Shown: positions 2,618 through 48,877, counted from the stretch's first letter. The stretch is DNA of 64,000 nt from Protoeuglena noctilucae (GCA_958009085.1 OY253680.1:558001-622000); one strand, 5' to 3'. Program-made: numbers and translations. The notes: generated from the sequence alone by a model not told the origin.

Positions 2618-3171
2618 CTACAAGCCCAGCAGGACGTTGCTGGCCAGCAGGCCCATCGCCACCGGCGACATCCCCTGCATCTTCTCCGCGGAAAAGCAGT
2701 CCTTCCCTGCGAACGCACACGCGGGTTGATGCTGAGCGATGCGCGCAATCCTCGATTGCACTGCTGCGCTGCCAGCGGGGGCGTCCAGGGTCCACCTGCT
2801 CCTCGGGACGCCGGCACGGACACGGCTTCCGACGCGGCTCTAGGGCGCTGGATCAGGGGCGTCGTGGCCGCGGAGCCCCTGCGCGTGTCTGCGCTGGTCG
2901 GCGAGGTGCTCGTCGACGTCTGGGCCTCGACGAAGGGCGGAATCTGCACGCTGACGCCGCGCCGGAGCCACGAGGGCACTGCGGCGCTCAGCGCCTTCGC
3001 CAACCCGTCGTCGATGGCCTGCGGCGGTCAGGAGGTGGCGGAGACGGTTGGAACCACGCGGGGGCCGTGCGTCGTAGCGGCACGGCCCGGCAGGGATCCC
3101 GGCAGGCCTACCCGACCCGATAGATCAAGTTAAATGCTACTCACTTGGTTCGAAGATCCCGGCGACGACAT
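2618..3171 (-). CDS. Small hypothetical protein (112 aa, 3 exons: 3171-3145, 3018-2796, 2706-2618)
   Basis: ATG, two GT-AG introns with consistent phase, and a TAG stop: MSSPGSSNQ|AIDDGLAKALSAAVPSWLRR...|GKDCFSAEKMQGMSPVAMGLLASNVLLGL*. No recognisable family. Confidence 0.5.
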
Positions 3172-3558
3172 TGGAGACTTTAAACCATTTGCACAAGCAG
3201 ACACTGTGGTGGACTGGAGGTTGACGCGTCCAGCACTGATACACCCAACTGCCCAAATTCGTGGTCGTTTCCGCGAATTTGAGGGCTCGGTAATGTCCAG
3301 TTTCTGACTTTTTCTGGCGCCTTTAAAACGGCGTTCTAAGGCTCCCCTGAGGTCACAAGCGCACCAATCAAAGGTTGCAGAACAGCTCTGACCTCTCGTA
3401 GTATCGGTAGCTTTGCCTCTGCCTGACCCGCACACAGCGTGCACTAACGCAGGTGTTTGCGTCGGCCCGCCGAGATTGAAGCGACGCTGGCGACGCCACA
3501 GCAATAAAAGGAAGTCCTCTCACACGCTGGGATTGGATATCAAGCCTGGGGAACAGCA

Positions 3559-6500
3559 ATGACGTCGGACAACCAGCCGATCCTGTTCGAAACTTTTGCG
3601 CTTCCCCGCGAGCTTCTCGTCGCGCTCGCCGCCATCTTCAACACCAACGCCACAGGTGAGATCCTGCGTATCGCGGATCGTGCGGTCCGGCCCACACGAG
3701 ATCCTGCGTATCGCGGATCGTGCGGTCCGGCCCACACATAGGCCTAGTCCGCCCACGGACAGCATGCATCGAAATGTTGTCGACATTCAATCGGGTGCAA
3801 CCCCGTGGAGCGACCGAAACGCTTCCCCACGCAGTCCCGCTGGGTGCGCTGATCGCGGGCGTCTACGAGCGCGGCGTGGATCTCGTCACGTATGCCCTGC
3901 AGGCAACCGGGACCGAGGAGCCCAACGTGGGGAAGAAGCGTGGCAAAGTGTACCTGCAAGCCATCGGGGCTCTCATCGACAGCCTGTGCCTCCTGAAGGA
4001 TGGGAAAGCGGTGTATCTTTGCAGGTGACCCGAGCGAGACCCAGCGCGCAGCCATACTTTGGGTGCATCTCGGGCCCGAGACGCCCTCTCATGCGTGCCT
4101 CACGCGCGTCTCCAACCGTCCTCTGCTCGCAGTGACATCAGTCACCAGATCGACTTTGCGCAGCTGGGCACGATCGCCACCGAGATCTGTGCTCATCGCA
4201 AAGCAGAGAACCTCAAAGACATCCCCGCGGCCCTGGTCAACGCCCTCAAAGCCAGGTCCTTCCTCGGGACCATCGTGTCCCTCATCGCCGGCGCCGACTT
4301 CGCCTACCAGCTCCCGCCATACCTAGCCGATGTCGTCCAGCCCGTCAGCGACCTCATCTACCTCTCCACCGTCACCGTGCAATGGGCGACGGGCGGCCTG
4401 GAAGTACACGAGCCGGATGGTGCCATCTTCGTGGACTATACGCAGCCGATTGCCGTCGCCGTCGACGACCTGGCCCGGCACATCCGCGACGCCCAGTGGG
4501 TCGCCCTGGACCTGGAGTGGACGCTGTTCCAGGGGAACCCCAAGCCCCGGCCCGAGCTGGCGCAGCTGGCGCTGCCGTCCGGGCAGGTGGTGGTGCTGGA
4601 CCTGGGCTGCAGGGCGGCCGTGGACCCCGAGATGGCCCGGGCATTCAAGGTCGACCCGGGGACCACGGTCGGGGAGCTGGGGGCCACAATCGTACGCAAG
4701 CTGTTTGAGGCCGCGGGGGACGGCCGCACAGTGGTGGTCATGCACGGGTGCGACGGCACGGACATGGACGCGCTGCTGGCGATGGGCGTGGCGCTGACGC
4801 CACAGGTGCTGGGCGGGGTCGTGGACACGCAGCTGCTGTTCGATGCGGTGCGGGCGCACGTGGACGCGGAGCGGCTGACCGCGCTGGGGCTGGGCAACCC
4901 AGCCAGGAAGCTGGGCCTGCACGAGCTGCACCTGCGCTACGGACTGAGGTGAGGGGTCGGTGCGACGGCATGGCGGGTGGACACTGTGGCGAGCCGGCAG
5001 CGCTCACGATGGTCAGCTGCACGCTCCCGGCTCCCTTCTAGTGTCCCTGAGCGGCCCCCGCGTGCAGGGGCAACCCACTCAAGGTCCAGGTACAGCCCAT
5101 GTTCGGCGGCAAGCTCCACGGCCCATGGACCGTCCGTGGCAGCGTCAACGAGTTCAAGCATGCGCGGTGGAAGCTGCTGCTACGCTATGCAGGTCTGTGC
5201 TCGCGTACGCTTGCCTACTCCGATGCCAGTCCTATTGCCCCATGTACATCCATGGCTGGGCCTGGCGTTGCCCACCTGCCAGGCCGCTGCTTCCAGATCG
5301 TACTTGTACAAGCAGCTGCCGGGCTTCCTTGCTGGCCGCAGTGGAGGACGTGAGCGAGCTGCTTGTGCTGGCCGACCTGCTGCAGCGGGACCTGGCGGTG
5401 CTGCAGGGCAAGCCCCAGTCCCCGCACTTCTTCGGCCACGCGCGGGACGCGAGCGGGAAGCTCCTGGGGTCGGACACGACCATTGCGGCCCGGGCGCAGC
5501 AAGCCGCACAGGCTGCGGCAGCAGCCGCGCCTGGGGTAATGACGCCGCCGCCACCCCCGAGGGTCGTGCCCCTCAAGGGGGCGGCGTTGAAAGCGGCGCC
5601 TGGGGTTGTTCCGCCGCCGTCACCTGCGAAGGCCAAGTCTGCTTAGAAGGCTGGGAAAAAAGCGGCGCCTGCTGCCGCGAGCGGCGTGCCTCGGACCCCA
5701 CGCGCCCACACCCCCGCCAGGGAGTGGGACCCGCGCGAGGAGGTGGCGCAGCAGGTGGGCGAGGCGGACGCCCACTTCCACGACCACGACGACCGCGTGC
5801 GGGCGACCGAGGTGGAGGCCATCCTGCGGCTGCTGCCGGCGCGGTACCGCACGCAGCTCGTGCAGGCGAGGCGCGGCGGAGATCATGGATGGCTTGCTGC
5901 TGCGAGGTGCAGCTGTCTTGACTGCGCAGCAAGGAGTCATCCCCGCAGATGCGCAGCCACGAGGTGGAGGACTTCTTCCTGGACCTGGGCCGGCCCCCGC
6001 GCATGGTGCTGCCGGACCAGGGGGCGGTCCTGTTCAGCGCCGACCCCGTGACCCAGGCGGACCTGGACGCCATCTACAACACCATCGGGCACGCCAACTT
6101 CCGCACCGGTGCGCGCATACGGCATCGGCAGCATGCGTTCATGTGTGCATTGCTTGCGACGCACGGCATCTGGCGGCAGACGTATGACCACCTGCATGCC
6201 TGGGGCTTGCCTTGCCAGCCAAGCAATGCCCCGCGCTTGCTCATTGTGGACAGTGCGCCTGACGTCGGTGACACGGCTGTCGTATGTGCCACCTTCAATC
6301 ACCATCCGGCACTCGCCATGCCTCCGCCACCCGCAGACAACCGCGCGGGCATCGACGGGTACCTGCACCGCGTGAGCGTGCTGCGCAGCGTGCGGGGCCA
6401 GCCGGTGGGCTTCACCCTGCGCGTGGGGCGCACGCTCAAGGGGAGCGCGGAGCTGGTGACGGACCTGGCCTTCTCCGGCAAGGGGCTGCTGCTGGTGGGC

Positions 6501-7727
6501 CCGCCGGGGCGCGGCAAGACGACGGCGCTGCGGGAGATCTCGCGGCTGCTGGCGGCCACGGGGAGGCGGGTCATGGTGGTCGACACGAGCAACGAGATCG
6601 GCGGCGACGGGGACGTGCCGCACCGGTCGCTCGGCAGCAGCCGCCGCATCCAGGTCCACGAGCGGGGCAGGCAGGCGCAGGTGAGCGAGGGGCGGTTTTG
6701 CTGGGGACGTGCGCTCCATCGAGCTCCAGGTGACGTTGCCTGTCAAGTCTGGGCCACCTGCACCCGCACTGCCACCCGCGACATGCCACCCTGCGCACCA
6801 CGGATGGCCCACCCAGGTGACTGCACCGCCCGCCACTCCTACTACCCCCGCAGGTGATGATCGAGGCGGTGCAGAACCACAACCCCGAGTGCATCGTCAT
6901 CGACGAGATCTCCAACCGCGCCGAGGCCGACGCCGCGCGCACCATCGCCGAGCGCGGGGTGCAGCTGGTGGCGACGGCGCACGGGCTGACGCTGGCCAAC
7001 GTGGTGCGCAACCCGGCCCTGTGCCACCTCGCGGGGGGCGTGACCACGGGTGAGGGCCGTCCGGGGCGGGCCAGAGGGGCGCCGAGCTCATGAGCCATGC
7101 GCATTGTCTTGCGTCATGGGGTGTCGCATGCCCCGTGTGCCTCGTGTGCCTTGTGCGACTCGTTCGCCTGTGATGCCCTGCTCCCTGCGCCCGCGTCGAT
7201 GCAGTGATCTTCAGCGACATCTCGATGAAGGAGCGCGGCATGACCAACAAGACGCAGCAGGAGCGCGAGCACGAGCCGGCCTTCCAGGCCGTGGTGGAGC
7301 TCCTGTCGCGCACCGTGTGGCGCGTGTACCCGGACATGAAGGCCGCCGTGGACGCCCTGCTCAGCGGCGAAGGTGAGCGACGAGGGGCGCGGCATGTGCG
7401 GTGCACGACAGTCAGCTGCGGGACACACGGTGCGCCACTGCCGCCCCTGCGCCTGTGTTCGGCGCAGAGCCGGTGTACGAGGTGCGGGAGCTGCTGGCGG
7501 ACGGGCGGGTGCGGGTGGTGTACGACGCCGAGGCGCGGGAGCTAGTGCAGAGGGTGGAGCGGGAGCAGGCCGAGGCGCGGATGCGGCGGCGCGACGCGGA
7601 GGCATCCGTGGGGGTGGACACGGGGGATGCGGGCGGGGGCATGGACGCGCCAAACGTTGGGGACACGGGTACGGCCTCCCGAGGGGGGTCGTTCATGAGG
7701 AGCTTGCTCGCCTGGAGGCCCACATGA
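3559..7727 (+). CDS. DEDDy 3'-5' exonuclease fused to a Ycf45/SpoIIIAA-like AAA+ ATPase
   Basis: ExoI WVALDLEW, ExoII VMHG..TDMDAL, VVDTQL, spliced ExoIII RYA|VEDV. Then [26 protein letters not shown], Walker [48 protein letters not shown]. Confidence 0.85.
3658..3737 (+). repeat. Perfect 40-bp tandem duplication at the start of intron 1
   Basis: gagatcctgcgtatcgcggatcgtgcggtccggcccacac x2 (3658-3697, 3698-3737). Confidence 0.95.
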
Positions 7728-7858
7728 CCTAAGAAGGAGTGGTGAGGTGCCCAAGTGATGGGCACTTGACCGAGTAATGCATTGCATAGTTTCGGGATCT
7801 TAAAGCAGCAGGATATTTGCCCAAGATCAATGTCGTCGATAATAATGGGAGGTACACC

Positions 7859-10800
7859 CTACACCGGGTATCCCCAAGCATCCCTCAGCACGCCACCACG
7901 CTGCACCAGGTTGGTCACCTCTACCCTATGCATCTGCACCATTCTGTCAATGTCCACGTCTATCTCGTCATACCATTCGTACAGGGGCCGAGTACCCGCC
8001 CCAAACACCCGCGGGAGGTAAGCACTGACGCGTGCCTGCCGGCCATGCCCTGCTTCTCCGTGGTACCATCCCATGCTGGGCACGTAGACTGGGCCATGAG
8101 ACATGCCCTTGCCGCCCCCGCGGCCTCCTCGGTATGGGAGCTCGCCTGCACGCCGCGAGCCTACGAGCCGGCCCCGGCGCCGCCTGTGACGTCCGGCAGC
8201 CGCGTCGGAGGAGTCCGGTGAGCTTGGCGCTGTGGTCAGCTCCGACTCGCTAGTCTCAGTGTGGACGGTCTCAGTAATCCAGGAGGCATCCTCCTGATGG
8301 GCCCCGTGCGCCGTGGCCAGGAGGTCCACGTCCTGGCGCAGCACGATCACCTCGCGCAACACGTGCTCTGTGGCCCGCGCAAGCACGTCCACGTCCACGT
8401 CCATCGGCCCACGCCCCGTTGCATCGACGACTGGACGAGCAGTGGCCACTGGAGACCCCGCGGAACCCGATGCCGTTGCGTGGAGCTGACCGGGGCCCGA
8501 GTCGGCGCCCAAATGGCTCTGCTCCGCCCAGCCATCCGCTCTAGCTGACATGCCAGACCGCCCTTGGCCGCTGGCAGGCGAGCTCGCCACCCTGCCATCG
8601 TTGGCTGCCGGCGGTGCATCTCGAGTCGCCTCAAAGTCCAGGCGCCGGCCGGCACTGTGCACAGCACCCTCCGCCCCACCACGCGCGGTCCTCGATGAGA
8701 GTCCGCGCCGTTCCTGCGATCGGACCGCGCTCGACGCCGATGCGCCCGCCCTATCGGGGTGTCTCTGCAACAAGGCCCTTGCATCGGGGCTCGGCCATGT
8801 GGCCCGCGCACCGCCAGCCACCGTCGGCCAGCCCCCGCTGGCCCTCGGCAGGGTGGCAGCGGCCCTGCTCGCCCTCCGCGCCGTCCCTGGGCTCGGCTGG
8901 GAGTGGCGTGTGCCCTGTTGGGGCCTTCGTTGAACGCTGTCCCCGCCGGAGGCCCTCGTGTGACTGCCGGGAGTGGCCAACGCTTTCAGCGCCGCAAGGA
9001 GGGACCCCACGGCCCCACCAGAGCGCAGGACACTCGTGCGCTCCGACGCAGCTCTCCTCGTGCCTTCCCCTGGCGTCCCACTCATACCCCGCATGCGAGT
9101 GCCCGTCTCAGGGGTGACGCTGTGGCTGCCCCGTAGGGGGCCGCCATTCACCGGCGGCGTGGCATGCAAGGCCGCCCAGTTCGGGGCCACCGGCGAGGCG
9201 TGCTGAGGGTCCGGCACGCTGGGCTCCCGAGCCCCCTGCATGCCCAGGGACCTTGGAACATCGCCCTCTGAAACAGCAGGCGGACTTGGCAGGCCCGTTC
9301 CGTCACGCCACCCAGGCGATGGGCCGGGTGCCTGGCGAGCCTCGGCCCCCTCCCGAGCCCCTGCTGTCCCTGACCACCCATGCGGTGCCCTGGGCTGGAC
9401 TCGTGCAAAGACGCTTCTATCGTCGTAAGCACCTCGCTGCCTGCCACGTCGGCGACTCTCCGCAGCCCCGGCGTTGGGGCGAGGTCCTCGGACTGCCCCA
9501 GGCCGCCGCGACGCGCAGATGAGTCCAGGGAGGGCACCTGCAGGGCCGCGTGGAACCCACCCCAGTCCTGGGATGGGGCGCCTGCGGGCGACCCTGGTGC
9601 GCTGAGGATACTGCCCGGGAGGGGTGACTCGACTTGCTCAGTCTCATGCCCATGGGCCGTGGGCGCCGGGCTCCGTTGACCGGGCGCCGTGCGGGTTTCC
9701 ACCTCTTGTCGTTGCTGTTGCGATGGCCCCGACTGCTCTGCGCCAAAGTCGAGACGGCGGGGCGCCTGAGGGCCATCAGCATCGGCCCTGGCGCTGACCT
9801 GCCACGCTGGCCCACCGGCGACCGACAATGCGGTCGCAGGCGGTGCGGCCGACGCTGCGTTGGGGTGGCCGAATCCCCCAGGGCCCGCGGAGCGCGACCA
9901 GGGCCCGGTCACATCAGGGACACCGCCTGAGGCCGCAACGGCGCTCACGCCCGTCCACCCAGGCGACCCCATCACACCGGGTGCCAGTCCCCGCCCTCCA
10001 CCGTCTGTATCCGCGCCTGGCCGCACCCTTCCCATCTGCGGCAGGAACCCCGCCCCCCGCAGTGTGTCGGACACGAGGGCTGCCTCGTGCAGCACGCCCG
10101 ACGACACGGATACCGGGCCCGACCCTGTGGTGCCGGAGCCGGAGGTGGAGAGCGAGACGGGCCCCGCCTGGCTCTGGGCGAGGAACCCCGCGGGGCTCGG
10201 GGGAGGGGCGGCATCCACAAGGGTTGGCCCCGGCGACAGGGGTGGGGGTGCTGGCGGTGATGCTCGGGTAGGCAGCGCTTGCACAGAGGTCTCGAGATGC
10301 ATCCCAGCGAGACTCTCGCCAACGCTCAGCGAACCACGGAGCCCCGAGGACGGAAACCCTGCACCGGTCGCTGTGCTGGGGCCTTCCAAGGTCCCCATCG
10401 AAGGCACGAGGGTCCCCGGCGTGCTGCGGGCGAGTCGAGACGCAAGATTGTCGGCGGAGATCGTGACGAGTCGGACGGGCTGGCGTCGAGATGCGGCTCG
10501 TTCCTGCTTTGGGCCCCGTCGGTCAGCACGCTACAAGCACCCCTCACCTGTGAAGCCTTCCCCCCCTCGATAGCGCCAGCAGCTGGGCGGGTGAAGGCAG
10601 GGTCGCGCTTTGTGATGGGCTCCCTCCTTTTGACGTAGCAGATGGGGGCGGGGAAGCATGCGTGAAGGACGGCATGTGGAAGGAAGGGTCCTGCAGGTGG
10701 ATCCCCAAGCGCTGTTGAACAAGCACTCCGACGTCGGAATCTTCCACATGCTCTTGGGTGAGAGCGGCGCAGCGGCTCGCACCTGGTACGCTTTCCCCAG

Positions 10801-32382: not shown

Positions 32383-34698
32383 ATGTCCCTCAGGCGGTCC
32401 GCGCGGCTCGTGGCGCGCGTCTTGGCGGGCCAGGCTTCGTCGTCGAGCACGTGTGCAGCATGCCAAGCGATCCGCTCCTTTGGGGCCCTCACTAGGGCGG
32501 AGAGGTGGGCGGTGCTGCATGCTGCACATCGGTTTCCCTTTCGCTGCCCCCCCGCGCCGCTGTCGCAGCCCGCGCGTCCGAAGTTGCGGCTTATCTGGAT
32601 CATATACCTTCTTCCGCTGCTTGTGGGTGCCTCTCCATCTGATCCCCCCCCTCGGAACGCAGGGGAGGGCGCAGGCTCGCACCCGCGCGCACCCAGCAGC
32701 CTTGGCCACGGCACGCTCGTCCCTTTGCGTCCCTGCCGAGCCACGAGAAGCTGAAGATGCCGGCTCTGTCTCCGACGATGGATCAGGGGTCCATCGCGTC
32801 GTGGAAGGTTAAGGAGGGGGACAAGGTCGGCCCGGGTGACCTCATCGCCGAGGTCCAGACCGACAAGGCCACCATCGTGAGTGCCCGGAGCGAGTAGCGA
32901 GCGCGAGAGCCTATCCGCGCGCCACGACAGGGAGACCTATGCAGTGCCTTGTTGCCATTGCCGCGACAACATCCATGCCCGGCATCTTGCCCCGCGCGTC
33001 TCGCAGGGATTCGAGGTCCAGGAAGAAGGGTACGTGGCGAGAATCCTGGTCCCCGATGGCACCATGGACATCAAGGTGGGGACGCCCGTGGCCATCATCG
33101 TGGAGGAGGAGGCGGACGTCGCGGCCTTCGCCAACGTGCCCGTCGCCGAGCTCAGCGGGGGGGCGGCGCCGTCGGACGGAGGAGGCGCAAAGGGCAAGGG
33201 CGCGGAAGCGCAGGCGGGCGGGGAGAAGAAGACTGCGCAGGTGCGGGTTGTGCGATGCGGGGGCGGTGCGGGTGTATGCACGCGTGTACAGTCCCCGCTT
33301 ATCGAGGATCGCCGCCGGCCCGCACCGATGCGTTGCGTGGCTTATGATTGATATTGCGCGGGTGATGGGTGACGCATCGCTACCCCCGCGGCACCGCTCT
33401 GTGCGCAGAAGGGTGGCGGCGGTGGCGGCACGGAGCGGCTGGTGGGCCCCGCGGCATGGCACCTTCTGCGCGAGGGCAACCTGTCGCCGAGCCAGATCAC
33501 GCCGACGGGACCCAAGGGGAACATCACCAAGGGCGACGTGCTGGCGGCCATAGCGGCCGGGGTCGGGCCGGCGACGAGCGCCAAGCCGGCTGCTGAAGTG
33601 CCCAAGCCAGCAGCAGCTAAACCCGCGGCCCCCGAGGCGTCGCGCGCGACGCCGAGCGCCCCGAGCCCCTCGCCTGCGTCGCCGTCTGCCGCCGCGCCCC
33701 CCGCGACGGGCGGCGACCGCGACGTCCCCGTCACCAACATGCGCCGCGTCATCGCCCGTCGGCTCTTAGAGTCCAAGACGCAGGTGCCGCACTGCTACTA
33801 CGCGGTCGACGTGTGCATGGACGGCATCCAGGACTTCCGGACGTCCCTGGCGGCACAAGGGGTCAAGCTGTCCGTCAACGACCTGGTCATCAAGGCCGTG
33901 GCCGCGGCATTACGCGAGGTGAGGGGGGGAACGAGTGACGCTGTCATGGTGTCTTGCTTGGCATTGGCAGCGCAGCGTGTGGGGGGCATGCGTCCCAACG
34001 CAGCGATCAAAAGGCACCGTGTAATGCCAGTCTGTCCCACGCGTGCCTCGCGTCACGCCTTGCAGGTCCCCGGCGCGAACGTGACGTGGGACGCCAAGGG
34101 GGAGGAGCTTGTGCTGCAGCCTTCCGTGGATGTGTCGGTGGCAGTGGCGACCGAGGGCGGGCTCATCACCCCGATCGTCAAGGGCGCGGATGGCAAGACG
34201 CTCAAGCAGATCTCCGCGGAGATCAAGGACCTCGCGGGGGTGAGCTGCGCGGCCACCGGGTGGGCTCATCACCCCGGTCAGATGGCACGAGACGTGAATG
34301 CACGAGAGTGCGCGTCTGCGGGTGCGTCTGCGTTTGGCCAGAGCCATGTTGCCATTTCAAGGCAGAGCGGGTGAGCACATCCGTTTCCGCGTCCGCAGCG
34401 TGCCCGGGCTAACAAGCTCAAGCCGGAGGAGTTCATGGGGGGATCATTCAGCGTGTCGAACCTCGGCATGTTCGGCATCGGCGAGTTCAGCGCCATCATC
34501 AACCCGCCCCAGGGCGGAATCCTTGCGGTCGGCTCCTCCGTCTCCCGCGTGGTTCTCGAGGCCGGGAAGCCCCGGTCAAAGAGCTTCATGACGGCGTCGC
34601 TCTCCGCCGACGCCCGCGCCATCCCCGGGAGCGTCGCGGAGTCGTTCCTGGACGCGTTCCGGCGCAACATGGAGAGCCCTGCCAAGCTCTTGCTGTGA
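32383..34698 (+). CDS. Mitochondrial pyruvate dehydrogenase E2-family protein lacking the catalytic His (E3-binding protein/PDHX-like)
   Basis: Lipoyl domain MPALSPTM...[18 protein letters not shown]...[13 protein letters not shown], core domain ending [11 protein letters not shown]. Confidence 0.88.
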
Positions 34699-47045: not shown

Positions 47046-48877
47046 ATGCTGCGTGCCGCGGCGAGGAGCCTCGTCCGCGGCCCGGATGGGGTCGCCTCGG
47101 CGCCCGCGTTCGTTGGCGCGCTCCTCCAGGTTCGTGGGCGACTGCTGCCGCCGTTCGCGTCCTCCGCGGCGTGTTTTATGTTTCGAAGAAGCCATCGCAC
47201 CGTGATCTGTCGTTGCACACCCTCGAACCGAGCGCGGGGGGGCCTCCTGTCCCTTGCAAGGAGCCGTTCCCTCTCCTCGCGAGATGTCCCGGACACTTTT
47301 CCGCCAAGCAGTGCGGACTTCCCTGTTGCCCCCGCAGAGCCGCAACTTCGCAGCCGGGGATAGCCTGGAGCTCAAGATTGGCCGCCCGTTCCTTGCGCAC
47401 CACATCGACCCCCCCTCCGAGACCGTGACGACCTCCAAGGTGGCCGCGACGCCGCGATGTCACGAACGCTGTCCCTGGATGCGTCTGCGGGAGCGGAAAC
47501 GCGGCTCCGTGATCTCCGCGCGCCGGTCTCGCGCGCCCCGCCTGCCTCACTGCCTGCGGCCGGATCCGCGGCGCTGCGCCTCACGCTGATCGCAGGACGA
47601 GCTGATGGGCTTCTACAAGCAAATGTACCTGATGCGCCGCATGGAGATCGCTCTGGACGTGCTCTACAAGTCCAAGATGGTGCGCGGCTTCTGCCACCTC
47701 TACGACGGTCAGGAGGCCGTGGCTGCGGGCATCAGCGCGGTTGCTACCCAGGAAGACTGCATCATCACCTCGTACCGCGACCACTGCCATGTGAGGGCGC
47801 CCGACCGCGGCCCGCGGCGGGTGCGCAAGATGGCACGTTGAGCCCATGCGAGCGCATGCCGCCTCCCCTCCTGCAGCACTTGATCCGCGGCGGGACGCCC
47901 AAGGAGGTCATTGGCGAGCTGATGGGGAAGGAGTGCGGCGCGAGCAAGGGCATGGGCGGGTCCATGCACATGTACAACAAGGAGTGGAACTGGTACGGCG
48001 GGTGCGGCATCGTGGGCGCCCAGATTCCCCTGGGCGCTGGCCTGGCCTTCAAGCTCAAGTACTCGGGGCAGAAGAACGTGGCCTTCACGCTCTTCGGCGA
48101 CGGCGCTGCCAACCAGGGCCAGGGCTTCGAGGCGTTTAACCTCGCAGCGATTTGGGACCTCCCAGGTCAGCGGGCGTGCCTGGCTGGCTGGAGCTGCGTG
48201 GTGGTGTGGACTTGCATCGCTCTCTCTGCTCATGCCGCTGGTGCTGGCCGCACTGTCCGCTGGCCGGCGCGCCCGTACTTGCCAGCTGCACTCGCGCACT
48301 CTCAGACCCCTCTCTCCGCACTCACCACCAGCCCCTCTTTCCTCTTCCAGTGATTTTCATCGTGGAGAACAACCAGTACGGCATGGGCACGGCGGCCACG
48401 CGCGCGGCCAAGTCGCCGTCCTTCTACAAGCGCGGCGACTACGTGCCGGGCGTCAAGGTGGACGGCATGGACGTCCTGGCGGTGCGCCAGGCGTGCAGTT
48501 TCGCCAAGGACTTCGCCGTGGAGCACGGCCCCATCATCCTCGAAATGGACACGTACCGCTACCACGGCCACTCCATGAGCGACCCCGGCTCCAGCTACCG
48601 CACCCGCGACGAGATCGCCTCGACGCGCCAGGAGCGCGACCCCATCGAGCGGGTCAAGAAGCTCGTCCTGGACCAGAAGCTGGCCGACGCGAGCGAGTTC
48701 AAGGCGATCGAGCGCGACGTCAAGAAGATCGTGGATGACTCGATTGAGGAGTGCAAGGCCCACCCGCCCCCCGACGTGGCCACCTACATGGCCAAGTACG
48801 TCTACTACGACCCCCACCCCATGGGCAAAATGGCACGGGGCACGTGGTTCGGCAAGGAGTTCGCCTACAAGCCCTGA
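47046..48877 (+). CDS. PDHA1: Mitochondrial pyruvate dehydrogenase E1 alpha subunit
   Basis: [28 protein letters not shown]-binding GDGAANQGQ...[16 protein letters not shown]. Confidence 0.97.

Follow-up and report, generated by a model that had tools for sequence, protein, structure and literature searches.

Does the locus at 3559-7727 encode one protein, in which a 3'-5' exonuclease is fused to a Ycf45/SpoIIIAA-type ATPase, or does it encode two proteins, or a protein followed by a relic? The original prediction had described one continuous spliced frame running from the exonuclease into the ATPase. We found that the two parts do share a transcript and a reading frame, but that the frame is not continuous: the spliced coding sequence, 2880 nt long, meets one stop at codon 511 and another at codon 960, and the first of these, a UAG, separates a 510-codon ORF1 from an ATPase part of 448 codons that has no start codon of its own. 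Our tentative answer, which we hold at somewhat less than even confidence, is that this is a fused exonuclease-ATPase gene whose main product would be the nuclease alone and whose full-length product would need the UAG to be bypassed. Coordinates are those of the window, that is, the whole stretch of 64,000 nucleotides analyzed, which comes from an alga, a GC-rich marine eukaryote.

The exon model that had been proposed from the DNA agrees with the RNA, in which all nine introns were seen as joints (eight GT-AG and one GC-AG) and a single poly(A) end, at 7815, serves the whole mRNA. The 5' untranslated region extends upstream at least as far as 3383, and exon 3 through the ATPase exons are joined in a single RNA contig of 2446 nt (X1 record 2). 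We read the locus as one gene with one mRNA, laid out as an N-terminal module, a flexible linker, and an ATPase:

3383..7815, + strand: spliced, polyadenylated mRNA, minimum extent (RNA contigs from 3383 or farther upstream, X1 record 1; loose poly(A) end at 7815, X2)
3559 (ATG) to 7725-7727 (TGA), + strand: gene, ten exons (RNA contigs)
3559-3655, + strand: exon 1; its start ATG at 3559 has no other ATG ahead of it in the mRNA from 3383 on, and the database protein P0136 starts here
3835-4024, + strand: exon 2 (ORF1, N-terminal region without an assigned family; RNA joints 3656-3834 and 4025-4132)
4133-4948, + strand: exon 3 (ORF1), with the end of the N-terminal region and then the ExoI, ExoII, and D-T-Q motifs (RNA contigs, motif map)
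5068-5192, + strand: exon 4 (ORF1; RNA joints)
5342-5865, + strand: exon 5, which takes in the last part of ExoIII, the Pro/Ala/Lys-rich linker with its in-frame TAG, and the first ATPase-homologous coding sequence (unspliced in RNA)
5866-5948, + strand: GC-AG intron, 83 nt (joint in X1, X3, and X4; ends read in sequence)
5949-6108, + strand: exon 6; it opens with the earliest ATG 3' of the TAG, a codon located within the conserved N-domain
6337-6680, + strand: exon 7, with Walker A at 6498-6524 (K698; joint 6109-6336; Pfam P-loop matches)
6854-7049, + strand: exon 8, with Walker B at 6890-6910 (D769, E770; Spore_III_AA on this exon)
7205-7372, + strand: exon 9, C-terminal part of the ATPase (RNA joints, family profile alignment)
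7468-7727, + strand: exon 10, ending in the TGA at 7725-7727, without a PTPase-like or R3H domain (RNA, Pfam)

Three features of exon 5 bear on how the two parts are connected:

5494-5718, + strand: low-complexity Pro/Ala/Lys linker with relaxed codon bias (A/T-ending codons 14/48 and 9/29, versus 0/48 after 5721)
5644-5646, + strand: in-frame TAG (codon 511), which ends ORF1 (DNA, RNA contigs, P0136)
5719-5865, + strand: start of homology to the ATPase of the closest relative, and the family's N-terminal helix at 5809-5859 (BLASTP, family profile; upstream of any ATG)

The stop codon is genuine: the exon that bears it is covered without a joint or a differing letter in all four RNA runs (X1 record 2, X2 record 6, X3 record 14, X4 record 18), and P0136, a protein of 510 amino acids from a separate JGI/IMG contig, is identical with the spliced ORF1, its last codon directly preceding the TAG. 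Since such a stop sits between the two parts, a fusion protein is possible only by stop bypass. Around it, the linker contains an in-frame, degenerate tandem duplication of 69 nt (5521-5589 and 5590-5658), the units of which share 42 of 69 bases, a value reached by none of 10000 shuffles; the TAG stands in register with an AAG of the preceding unit, although this register is weak in the TAG-containing half. The stop is followed by A, and this UAG-A context corresponds to no stimulatory readthrough context known to us. The 120 nt 3' of the TAG folded no better as RNA than shuffled sequences did (z = 0.05).

What does ORF1 encode? Its product of about 55 kDa carries the D-L-E, H...D, and YAVED motifs that had been named for it, just as both named Walker motifs were located in the ATPase part:

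4503-4523, + strand: ExoI-like D-L-E motif (D222, E224), aligned with D28/E30 of Escherichia coli RNase D and D355/E357 of Pol I
4740-4775, + strand: ExoII-like H..D..D motif (D306), aligned with D85 of RNase D and D424 of Pol I
5183-5352, + strand: ExoIII-like Y-A-V-E-D motif (Y-x3-D; Y408, D412), split by intron 4 (5193-5341) and aligned with Y151/D155 of RNase D

All five residues (D, E, D, Y, D) are collinear with those that we take to be catalytic in the two reference enzymes (D28/E30/D85/Y151/D155 in RNase D, and their Pol I equivalents), the identities of which we confirmed in the sequences. Among 200 shuffled controls, 41 aligned none of these residues, 81 aligned one, 63 two, and 15 three, and none aligned more than three. 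ExoI, ExoII, D-T-Q, and ExoIII follow one another in the same order and with the same spacing as in the PF01612 enzymes (E. coli RNase D and the proofreading domain of Pol I), from which ORF1 differs by additional insertions between the motifs. Beyond the motifs, the proposed resemblance to EXD1, Egalitarian, and RNase D did not hold up at the sequence level. The whole 510-residue ORF1 matched no Pfam family at an E value of ≤1, PF01612 included, and no NCBIfam family at ≤0.1; a PDB sequence search returned nothing at ≤10 and no Egalitarian chain; and BLASTP against E. coli RNase D gave no significant similarity (E = 1.1). As positive controls, E. coli rnd and polA scored 182.8 and 152.7 bits with PF01612. 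A feature search of a protein atlas placed PF01612 in 24 of the 30 nearest clusters, with a top score of 0.92, although only 155-159 features were shared, versus the 170 typical of true members. From its motifs, we read the part of ORF1 that follows the N-terminal region as a very divergent predicted 3'-5' exonuclease domain of the DEDDy type (DnaQ/RNase D-like). ORF1 had no homologue other than itself among 1.84 billion representative proteins; we read it as a lineage-specific protein whose N-terminal region is probably helical. The suggestion that this region is a winged-helix or LOTUS-like module found no backing, since no Pfam family matched it and the one fold model, a single-sequence AlphaFold2 prediction of ORF1, had a mean pLDDT of 38.3, unusable for a fold search.

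The identity of the second part is clearer. A custom profile built from 102 family homologues matched residues 542-907 of the read-through translation with 469.4 bits, and the last two exons had no R3H or other Pfam match at an E value of ≤1, in line with the predicted Ycf45/SpoIIIAA-type ATPase lacking R3H; Pfam PF19568, run on a single 65-residue exon, gave 25.8 bits, below its cut-off of 27. Walker A and Walker B are kept together with other family-conserved motifs, and of the 118 columns with at least 95% conservation across 120 canonical homologues, the ATPase part keeps 99, compared with 101 in its intact closest relative, which argues that it has not decayed. In a quick tree, the ATPase fell on the eukaryotic (green-lineage) side of the split from bacterial sequences (100% support) and formed a clade with that relative (99% SH-aLRT); it has the longest end branch of the tree, 2.43 versus 1.36 for its sister, with one sister cluster only.

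This relative, protein cluster P0003/P0125 from metagenome contigs L001 and L002, is informative about domain layout. BLASTP gave 51% identity between the two ATPases (193/379 columns), and P0125 itself matches PF19568 with 49.8 bits. Canonical members of the family, annotated as R3H domain-containing AAA ATPases and found in cyanobacteria, myxobacteria, and Chloroflexota as well as in nuclear genes of green algae and plants, combine PF19568 with the PTPase-like PF25516 and, in bacteria, with the R3H domain PF01424; in three such members, PF25516 scored 61-70 bits, and the bacterial one also had R3H. In contrast, both our gene and P0125 have an N-terminal module, a Pro/Ala linker, and an ATPase without PTPase-like or R3H domains, and in our gene a module precedes the ATPase where canonical Ycf45 proteins have a transit-peptide-like extension. 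The two also differ: P0125 is a single open frame of 505 codons without introns, and its N-terminal module is a C2H2 zinc finger (zf-met, 22.8 bits) rather than an exonuclease, none being encoded upstream. PF01612 was likewise absent from the matches listed in two protein searches (120 each; P0003-P0121 and P0137-P0249 plus overlaps). When the model of the relative's ATPase, not of the gene's own protein, was searched with Foldseek, the best match was 5f4h, an archaeal RuvB-like Holliday-junction helicase and hence a motor acting on nucleic acid (E 3.7e-12), followed by PilT, PilU, FlaI, VirB11, and DotB; identities were 11-18% and TM-scores 0.3-0.54. The model, which is of good quality, shares a two-domain fold with 5f4h and the PilT/VirB11/FlaI hexameric "traffic" ATPases (E 3.7e-12 to 1e-9), and the AAA+ label first given to this ATPase finds no support in these matches. 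The second part is an intact Ycf45/SpoIIIAA-type P-loop ATPase that has lost the PTPase-like and R3H domains and that, judging from its relative's model, belongs to the PilT/VirB11 ring-motor fold class.

Next, we asked where coding resumes after the stop. BLASTP similarity to P0125 begins 25 codons 3' of the TAG and 76 codons 5' of the ATG at 5949, and the 219 nt between the TAG and that ATG contain no ATG in any frame, against 1.97 expected; a count of zero has a Poisson chance of about 1/7. The family profile aligned a conserved N-terminal helix at 5809-5859, and helix H113-129 of the relative's model is confidently folded (pLDDT >90). Scored alone, 5719-5865 gave a weak match (6.6 bits, E 0.034) that exceeded both the best of 200 shuffles (3.5 bits) and the other two frames. 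Codon usage changes at the same place: A/T-ending codons number 0/48 in 5721-5865 versus 9/29 just upstream, the GC3 of 5719-5865 is 1.0, and GC3 minus GC2 lies at 0.38-0.56 in the segment after the linker, compared with at most 0.22 in 18 non-coding windows. Homology to the ATPase family thus starts upstream of the first available ATG, and the extension past the stop, in the same frame as ORF1, is of the coding-like, homologous kind by which readthrough genes are recognized.

Several explanations could account for a stop in this position. While the TAG could simply be a recent nonsense lesion, a linker substitution (possibly AAG to TAG) that truncated a formerly continuous fusion and left only the 510-residue protein with the ATPase as an untranslated relic, we consider this possible but on balance rather unlikely. 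It would be the simplest account of a single stop within a low-complexity linker whose codon bias is relaxed, and the register with the AAG of the previous repeat unit, the failure to find a readthrough-promoting RNA structure, and the long end branch all speak for it. However, the register is weak just where the TAG lies, and the ATPase part shows no decay: its 448 codons are open, its five introns are spliced correctly, and its GC3 is near 1.0. The lesion would therefore have to be very recent, yet the assembly, four metatranscriptome runs, and the JGI/IMG record all carry the same allele. Alternatively, gene fission may be under way at this locus, with the UAG terminating ORF1 and the ATPase being made as a second protein from an internal transcript, by reinitiation at the ATG at 5949, or from a non-AUG codon located somewhere from 5647 to about 5760. 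That first ATG past the stop is in the ATPase frame and follows an ATG-free spacer, in-frame GTG and CTG codons are present at 5686-5860, and two published studies establish polycistronic nuclear mRNAs in green algae (PMC7896298, PMC11291117), which our gene resembles in having two ORFs on one capped, polyadenylated mRNA with a short, ATG-free spacer. The algal bicistrons described there differ in that ORF1 is short, with a median of 291-357 nt, and depleted of ATGs (PMC11291117), whereas ORF1 here has 1530 nt and 16 ATGs, versus 13.9 expected, and conserved coding of ORF2 starts 5' of its first ATG. Leaky scanning to ORF2 is implausible given this length, the 16 ATGs, and the purine at -3 (start context: G at -3, A at +4), and reinitiation after long ORFs is described as inefficient in the discussion of PMC11291117. 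Moreover, a start at 5949 would remove conserved, confidently folded N-domain helices, the coding signal already begins by about 5720, and an ATG-free spacer of this size is no rarity. Taken together, we regard a two-protein locus as unlikely.

Two further ways of making the stop disappear appear far less probable. An in-frame intron of 84 nt at 5637-5720, usually retained, would delete the TAG and join both parts when removed. Of 316 in-frame GT/GC..AG pairs flanking the TAG, this one ranked best; it has a donor similar to that of intron 4 and a size close to the 83 nt of intron 5, and its acceptor falls where homology begins and codon bias shifts, near 5720. Yet its joint was not found in the RNA contigs of the four runs, it has neither the G at donor position -1 nor the GCAG acceptor that 9/9 real introns of this gene share, and the candidate was chosen after the fact, all of which makes a minor alternative splice very unlikely. 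Hardly credible, finally, is a nuclear code in which UAG is a sense or ambiguous codon. Though an open, coding-like frame lies to either side of the lone TAG, there is only one TAG in 958 codons, and the window, a weak test at 64 kb, contains no tRNA gene; of its 129 isolated in-frame TAGs, only 2 are flanked by coding-like sequence, each of them on the minus strand and one simply antisense to the gene.

The reading that we tentatively prefer, a fusion gene with UAG bypass, draws on the continuation of coding-like, homologous sequence in the same frame past the TAG, on an undecayed ATPase part whose relative has the same module-linker-ATPase layout, on the single RNA contig that runs from exon 3 into the ATPase exons toward one poly(A) end, and, for the nuclease, on the five collinear residues and the atlas neighborhood. 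Against it stand the absence of a recognized stimulatory context or downstream RNA structure, the weak score of the N-helix segment on its own, the failure of the exonuclease assignment in every profile test, and the lack, among the 1.84 billion proteins searched, of an ORF1 orthologue with which conservation of the stop could be shown. The codon-bias gap between ORF1 and the ATPase part (A/T-ending codons 57/460 versus 10/424; Fisher p = 6e-9) is also unexpected in a reading frame of long standing. Readthrough at the basal level normally stays well below a few per cent, so the fusion would be rare, and a premature stop upstream of five introns should subject the mRNA to decay. A shared frame, too, is expected by chance in about one-third of genuinely bicistronic algal ORF pairs, according to PMC7896298.

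If the gene does work by UAG bypass, termination in the linker would yield the nuclease-only protein of about 55 kDa as the main product, and bypass, most likely by near-cognate readthrough and much less likely by a rare in-frame splice, would yield a nuclease-ATPase fusion of about 103 kDa. In this fusion, the ATPase ring may grip or translocate single-stranded nucleic acid, probably RNA, and feed 3' ends to the tethered exonuclease, with the N-terminal nucleic-acid module taking, in this lineage, the place of the canonical R3H domain. ATP-coupled RNA trimming is the function that we would predict from the domains. It is tempting, if doubtful, to go further and see in the UAG a translational switch that provides free exonuclease by default and, by regulated readthrough, a small and tunable share tethered to the ATPase. 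No function is established for the Ycf45 family; of 34 full-text matches for ycf45, the 25 listed are mostly plastid-genome or phylogenomic papers, judged by titles and the openings of abstracts. If the switch reading is correct, the organism would possess an ATP-driven machine for RNA 3'-end processing or degradation, and the gene would offer a first functional hint that ATPases of the Ycf45 type act as nucleic-acid motors with an interchangeable binding module, be it an R3H domain, a zinc finger, or a nuclease.

The window has a GC content of 63-72% (2-kb windows), is eukaryotic, and its introns are short. Reading the sequence together with the RNA contigs over 3000-8300, which come from four metatranscriptome runs (X1 to X4) that belong to a single study and stem from no more than three samples, we resolved the gene of interest into ten exons on the plus strand:

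3559-3655, plus strand, exon 1
3835-4024, plus strand, exon 2
4133-4948, plus strand, exon 3
5068-5192, plus strand, exon 4
5342-5865, plus strand, exon 5
5949-6108, plus strand, exon 6
6337-6680, plus strand, exon 7 (start set by an RNA joint)
6854-7049, plus strand, exon 8
7205-7372, plus strand, exon 9
7468-7727, plus strand, exon 10

All nine introns were seen as joints in the RNA, eight of them GT-AG and one GC-AG (5866-5948), and a single 2446-nt contig (record 2 of run X1) runs from 4149 across exons 3 to 8. The mRNA has a poly(A) loose end at 7815 and extends 5' to at least 3383; counted from there, its first ATG is the one at 3559. Together, these observations show that the exon model of the original prediction was essentially correct. 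Contigs of run X2 also cover introns (5236-5446, 6091-6397, 6379-6750, 6836-7148, and 7267-7815); these are unspliced pre-mRNA or carried-over DNA, present alongside the spliced forms in X1, X3, and X4, and are not evidence against splicing. Because contigs are uninformative on transcript starts or levels, depth differences along the gene were left out of the evidence, as were the contig ends of X2 to X4 at 5527-5571. Intron 1 holds a perfect 40-nt tandem duplication (3658-3737; 2.0 copies, 100% match). One X4 contig joins 8112-8129, downstream of the gene, to 4555-4575 in exon 3 across 30 foreign letters and has loose ends on both sides; it is probably chimeric or reflects a short shared motif.

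The spliced coding sequence of 2880 nt does not form the one continuous frame that had been predicted: it has stops at codons 511 and 960, the former being a TAG that occupies 5644-5646, midway through exon 5. This exon is covered by RNA contigs of all four runs, with no joint and no differing letter, and the database protein P0136 (510 amino acids, from a 2925-nt JGI/IMG contig) equals the spliced upstream part, ORF1, letter for letter and ends just before the TAG. DNA and RNA thus both carry the stop, and an assembly error or an unrecognised intron at codon 511 is ruled out. The gene reads 510 codons, UAG, 448 codons in the same frame, and UGA, so that the original observation is confirmed in its exons and not in its continuity.

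Judged by its sequence, the part after the stop is a bona fide ATPase of the Ycf45/SpoIIIAA type, as had been proposed: residues 542-907 of the read-through translation score 469 bits against a profile of 102 homologues, and Walker A and Walker B are both present. Among the columns whose conservation reaches 95% in 120 canonical homologues (a sample of 206), this ATPase keeps 99 of 118, compared with 101 in its intact closest relative (P0003/P0125, a cluster on metagenome contigs); at a 90% threshold, each keeps 111/143. At the sequence level, the ATPase part thus shows no decay. Canonical Ycf45 members have a PTPase-like domain (PF25516), joined in the bacterial ones by an R3H domain. Pfam found neither in the last exons of the window's gene, bearing out the predicted absence of a C-terminal R3H. 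Conserved ATPases of the Ycf45 type range from cyanobacteria to the plastids of plants. Among the literature matches listed, mostly plastid-genome or phylogenomic papers seen as extracts, no function is established for them. The gene has no paralogue within the window by tblastn. Elsewhere in the window lie an exon of a 2-oxoacid dehydrogenase acyltransferase (34375-34695; PF00198, 106 bits), an exon of a dehydrogenase E1 component (48140-48874; PF00676, 186 bits), and, tail to tail with the gene, a 592-codon open frame on the minus strand (7862-9637), which is of low complexity, has no Pfam match, and is overlapped by an RNA contig over 7925-8174.

ORF1 is an orphan. As a query, exon 3 (271 amino acids) scored with 0 of 7996 candidates among longer proteins, and an exhaustive HMMER search of 1.84 billion representatives retrieved only exon 3 itself and P0123 (E 1.8e-4). 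In the latter, a 2855-amino-acid protein, a segment repeated four times weakly resembles ORF1 residues 177-213 (4374-4484), just before the ExoI motif, with 14/37 residues identical; we treated this match as probably due to chance. P0123 also holds a stretch that we take, from its motif, to be Tudor-like. For the full 510-amino-acid ORF1, Pfam (E<=1) and NCBIfam gave no family and the PDB no relative, Egalitarian included, and BLASTP against E. coli RNase D was not significant (E = 1.1), so that the suggested resemblance to Egalitarian and RNase D was not recovered. A viral contig scan with the exonuclease-like part gave no match, and an AlphaFold2 model of ORF1 made without an alignment was unusable (pLDDT 38). 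A winged-helix or LOTUS-like module, proposed for residues 1-185, was supported by none of the searches.

Two results argue for an exonuclease nonetheless. When MAFFT was used to align residues 185-435 with the proofreading domain of Pol I and with E. coli RNase D, the catalytic positions were occupied by D, E, D, Y, and D of ORF1 (5/5); 0/200 shuffles exceeded three. In addition, when the whole putative domain was run through the protein-atlas feature search, PF01612 turned up in 24 of the 30 nearest clusters (top score 0.92), although ORF1 shares fewer features than is typical for true PF01612 members. The original assignment to the DEDDy class therefore stands on its catalytic residues but not on any family-profile or structure match, and we consider it likely that ORF1 carries a divergent predicted DEDDy exonuclease fold.

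Among the matches listed, P0003/P0125 is the closest to the window's ATPase (68% identity over the core exon, 51% over 379 columns); at the next match the score falls from 859 to 307 bits. A quick tree groups the two (SH-aLRT 99) and puts them with the eukaryotic sequences, across a 100%-support split from the bacterial ones, a placement made unsure by their long branches. The relative's ATPase lies at 1850-3439 of contig L001 (also on L002), a 74% GC contig, as a single 505-codon ORF; its neighbours on L001 encode an alpha/beta hydrolase and a DUF6816 protein. In this ORF, an N-terminal C2H2 zf-met zinc finger is followed by a Pro/Ala linker and then the ATPase. The layout is that of the window's gene (N-terminal module, linker, ATPase), and both lack the R3H tail, but the relative is intron-less and uninterrupted and has the zinc finger where the window's gene has the exonuclease-like domain. 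PF01612 was absent from all matches listed in two ATPase searches (best 120 per search), and among 249 proteins examined the longest extension before the ATPase was 251 amino acids, none being a fused form. An AlphaFold2 model of the relative (95-row alignment) reached a mean pLDDT of 75.7 and exceeded 90 over most of its core (113-466). Its best Foldseek match was the archaeal RuvB-like Holliday-junction helicase 5f4h (E 3.7e-12), followed by PilT, PilU, FlaI, VirB11/HP0525, DotB, and TadA. By this model, the fold class is that of the PilT/VirB11 ring motors rather than classical AAA+, the label originally given.

ATPase coding is already under way well before any start codon. From the TAG to 5949, none of the frames holds an ATG, yet similarity to the relative starts 25 codons past the TAG (~5719), and the family's conserved N-terminal helix, confidently folded in the relative's model, is encoded at 5809-5859 by profile alignment; this segment alone scores a weak 6.6 bits, above the other two frames and 200/200 shuffles. 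Codon usage also switches sharply, A/T-ending codons making up 14/48 in 5494-5636 and 9/29 in 5635-5720 but 0/48 in 5721-5865 and 10/376 in the rest of the ATPase. Within the linker lies a degenerate 69-nt duplication, in frame (42/69 identical, reached by 0/10000 shuffles), in which the TAG is in register with an AAG; the TAG-bearing half is poorly conserved. Together with the relative's layout, the upstream coding start and the register of the duplication weigh heavily in favor of a fused origin over two independent cistrons.

Tentatively, we favor a fused gene that makes mainly the nuclease-only protein and whose full-length product needs bypass of the UAG. Against this stand the lack of a readthrough-promoting RNA structure downstream of the TAG (z = 0.05) and of a recognised readthrough context around it, and a codon bias gap that fits poorly with a long-standing single frame: 57/460 codons end in A/T in ORF1 (3559-5493) versus 10/424 in the ATPase part (5721-7727; Fisher p = 6e-9), which suggests different ages or constraints of the two modules. 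A nonsense lesion is somewhat unlikely; it would have to be very recent, given the undecayed ATPase.

Separate translation of the ATPase we regard as doubtful, because its coding begins well 5' of the first ATG, at 5949. Leaky scanning, described in extracts of two papers as the mechanism shown for green-algal bicistrons (PMC11291117, PMC7896298), is unfit for an ORF1 of 1530 nt with 16 ATGs (13.9 expected) and was rejected. A rare splice removing the stop is very unlikely: the candidate, an 84-nt in-frame intron at 5637-5720, lacks the splice-site features common to the nine real introns and is absent from the RNA contigs. Most improbable is a variant code in which TAG is sense, as the window offers no sign of reassignment; it also contains no tRNA genes.

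Should the UAG of the fused gene be bypassed as we favor, the PilT-class ring ATPase would hold single-stranded nucleic acid, or thread it, and offer 3' ends to the DEDDy nuclease tethered to it. The original interpretation is partly supported, in its ATPase and predicted nuclease. Among the matches listed, literature on Egalitarian or exonucleases together with SpoIIIAA made no mention of SpoIIIAA. In this eukaryotic alga, the UAG and a downstream domain without a start codon form a clean natural test case for readthrough versus fission versus very recent gene death. The finding would be an ordinary one if the stop proved to be a fresh nonsense mutation. In both the window and the relative, an ATPase without the R3H nucleic-acid-binding tail has gained a different N-terminal nucleic-acid module, and nuclease, zinc finger, and canonical R3H would be interchangeable; the relative's best structural match, 5f4h, acts on DNA junctions. 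Such module swapping is circumstantial evidence that the Ycf45 family may act on RNA or single-stranded DNA.
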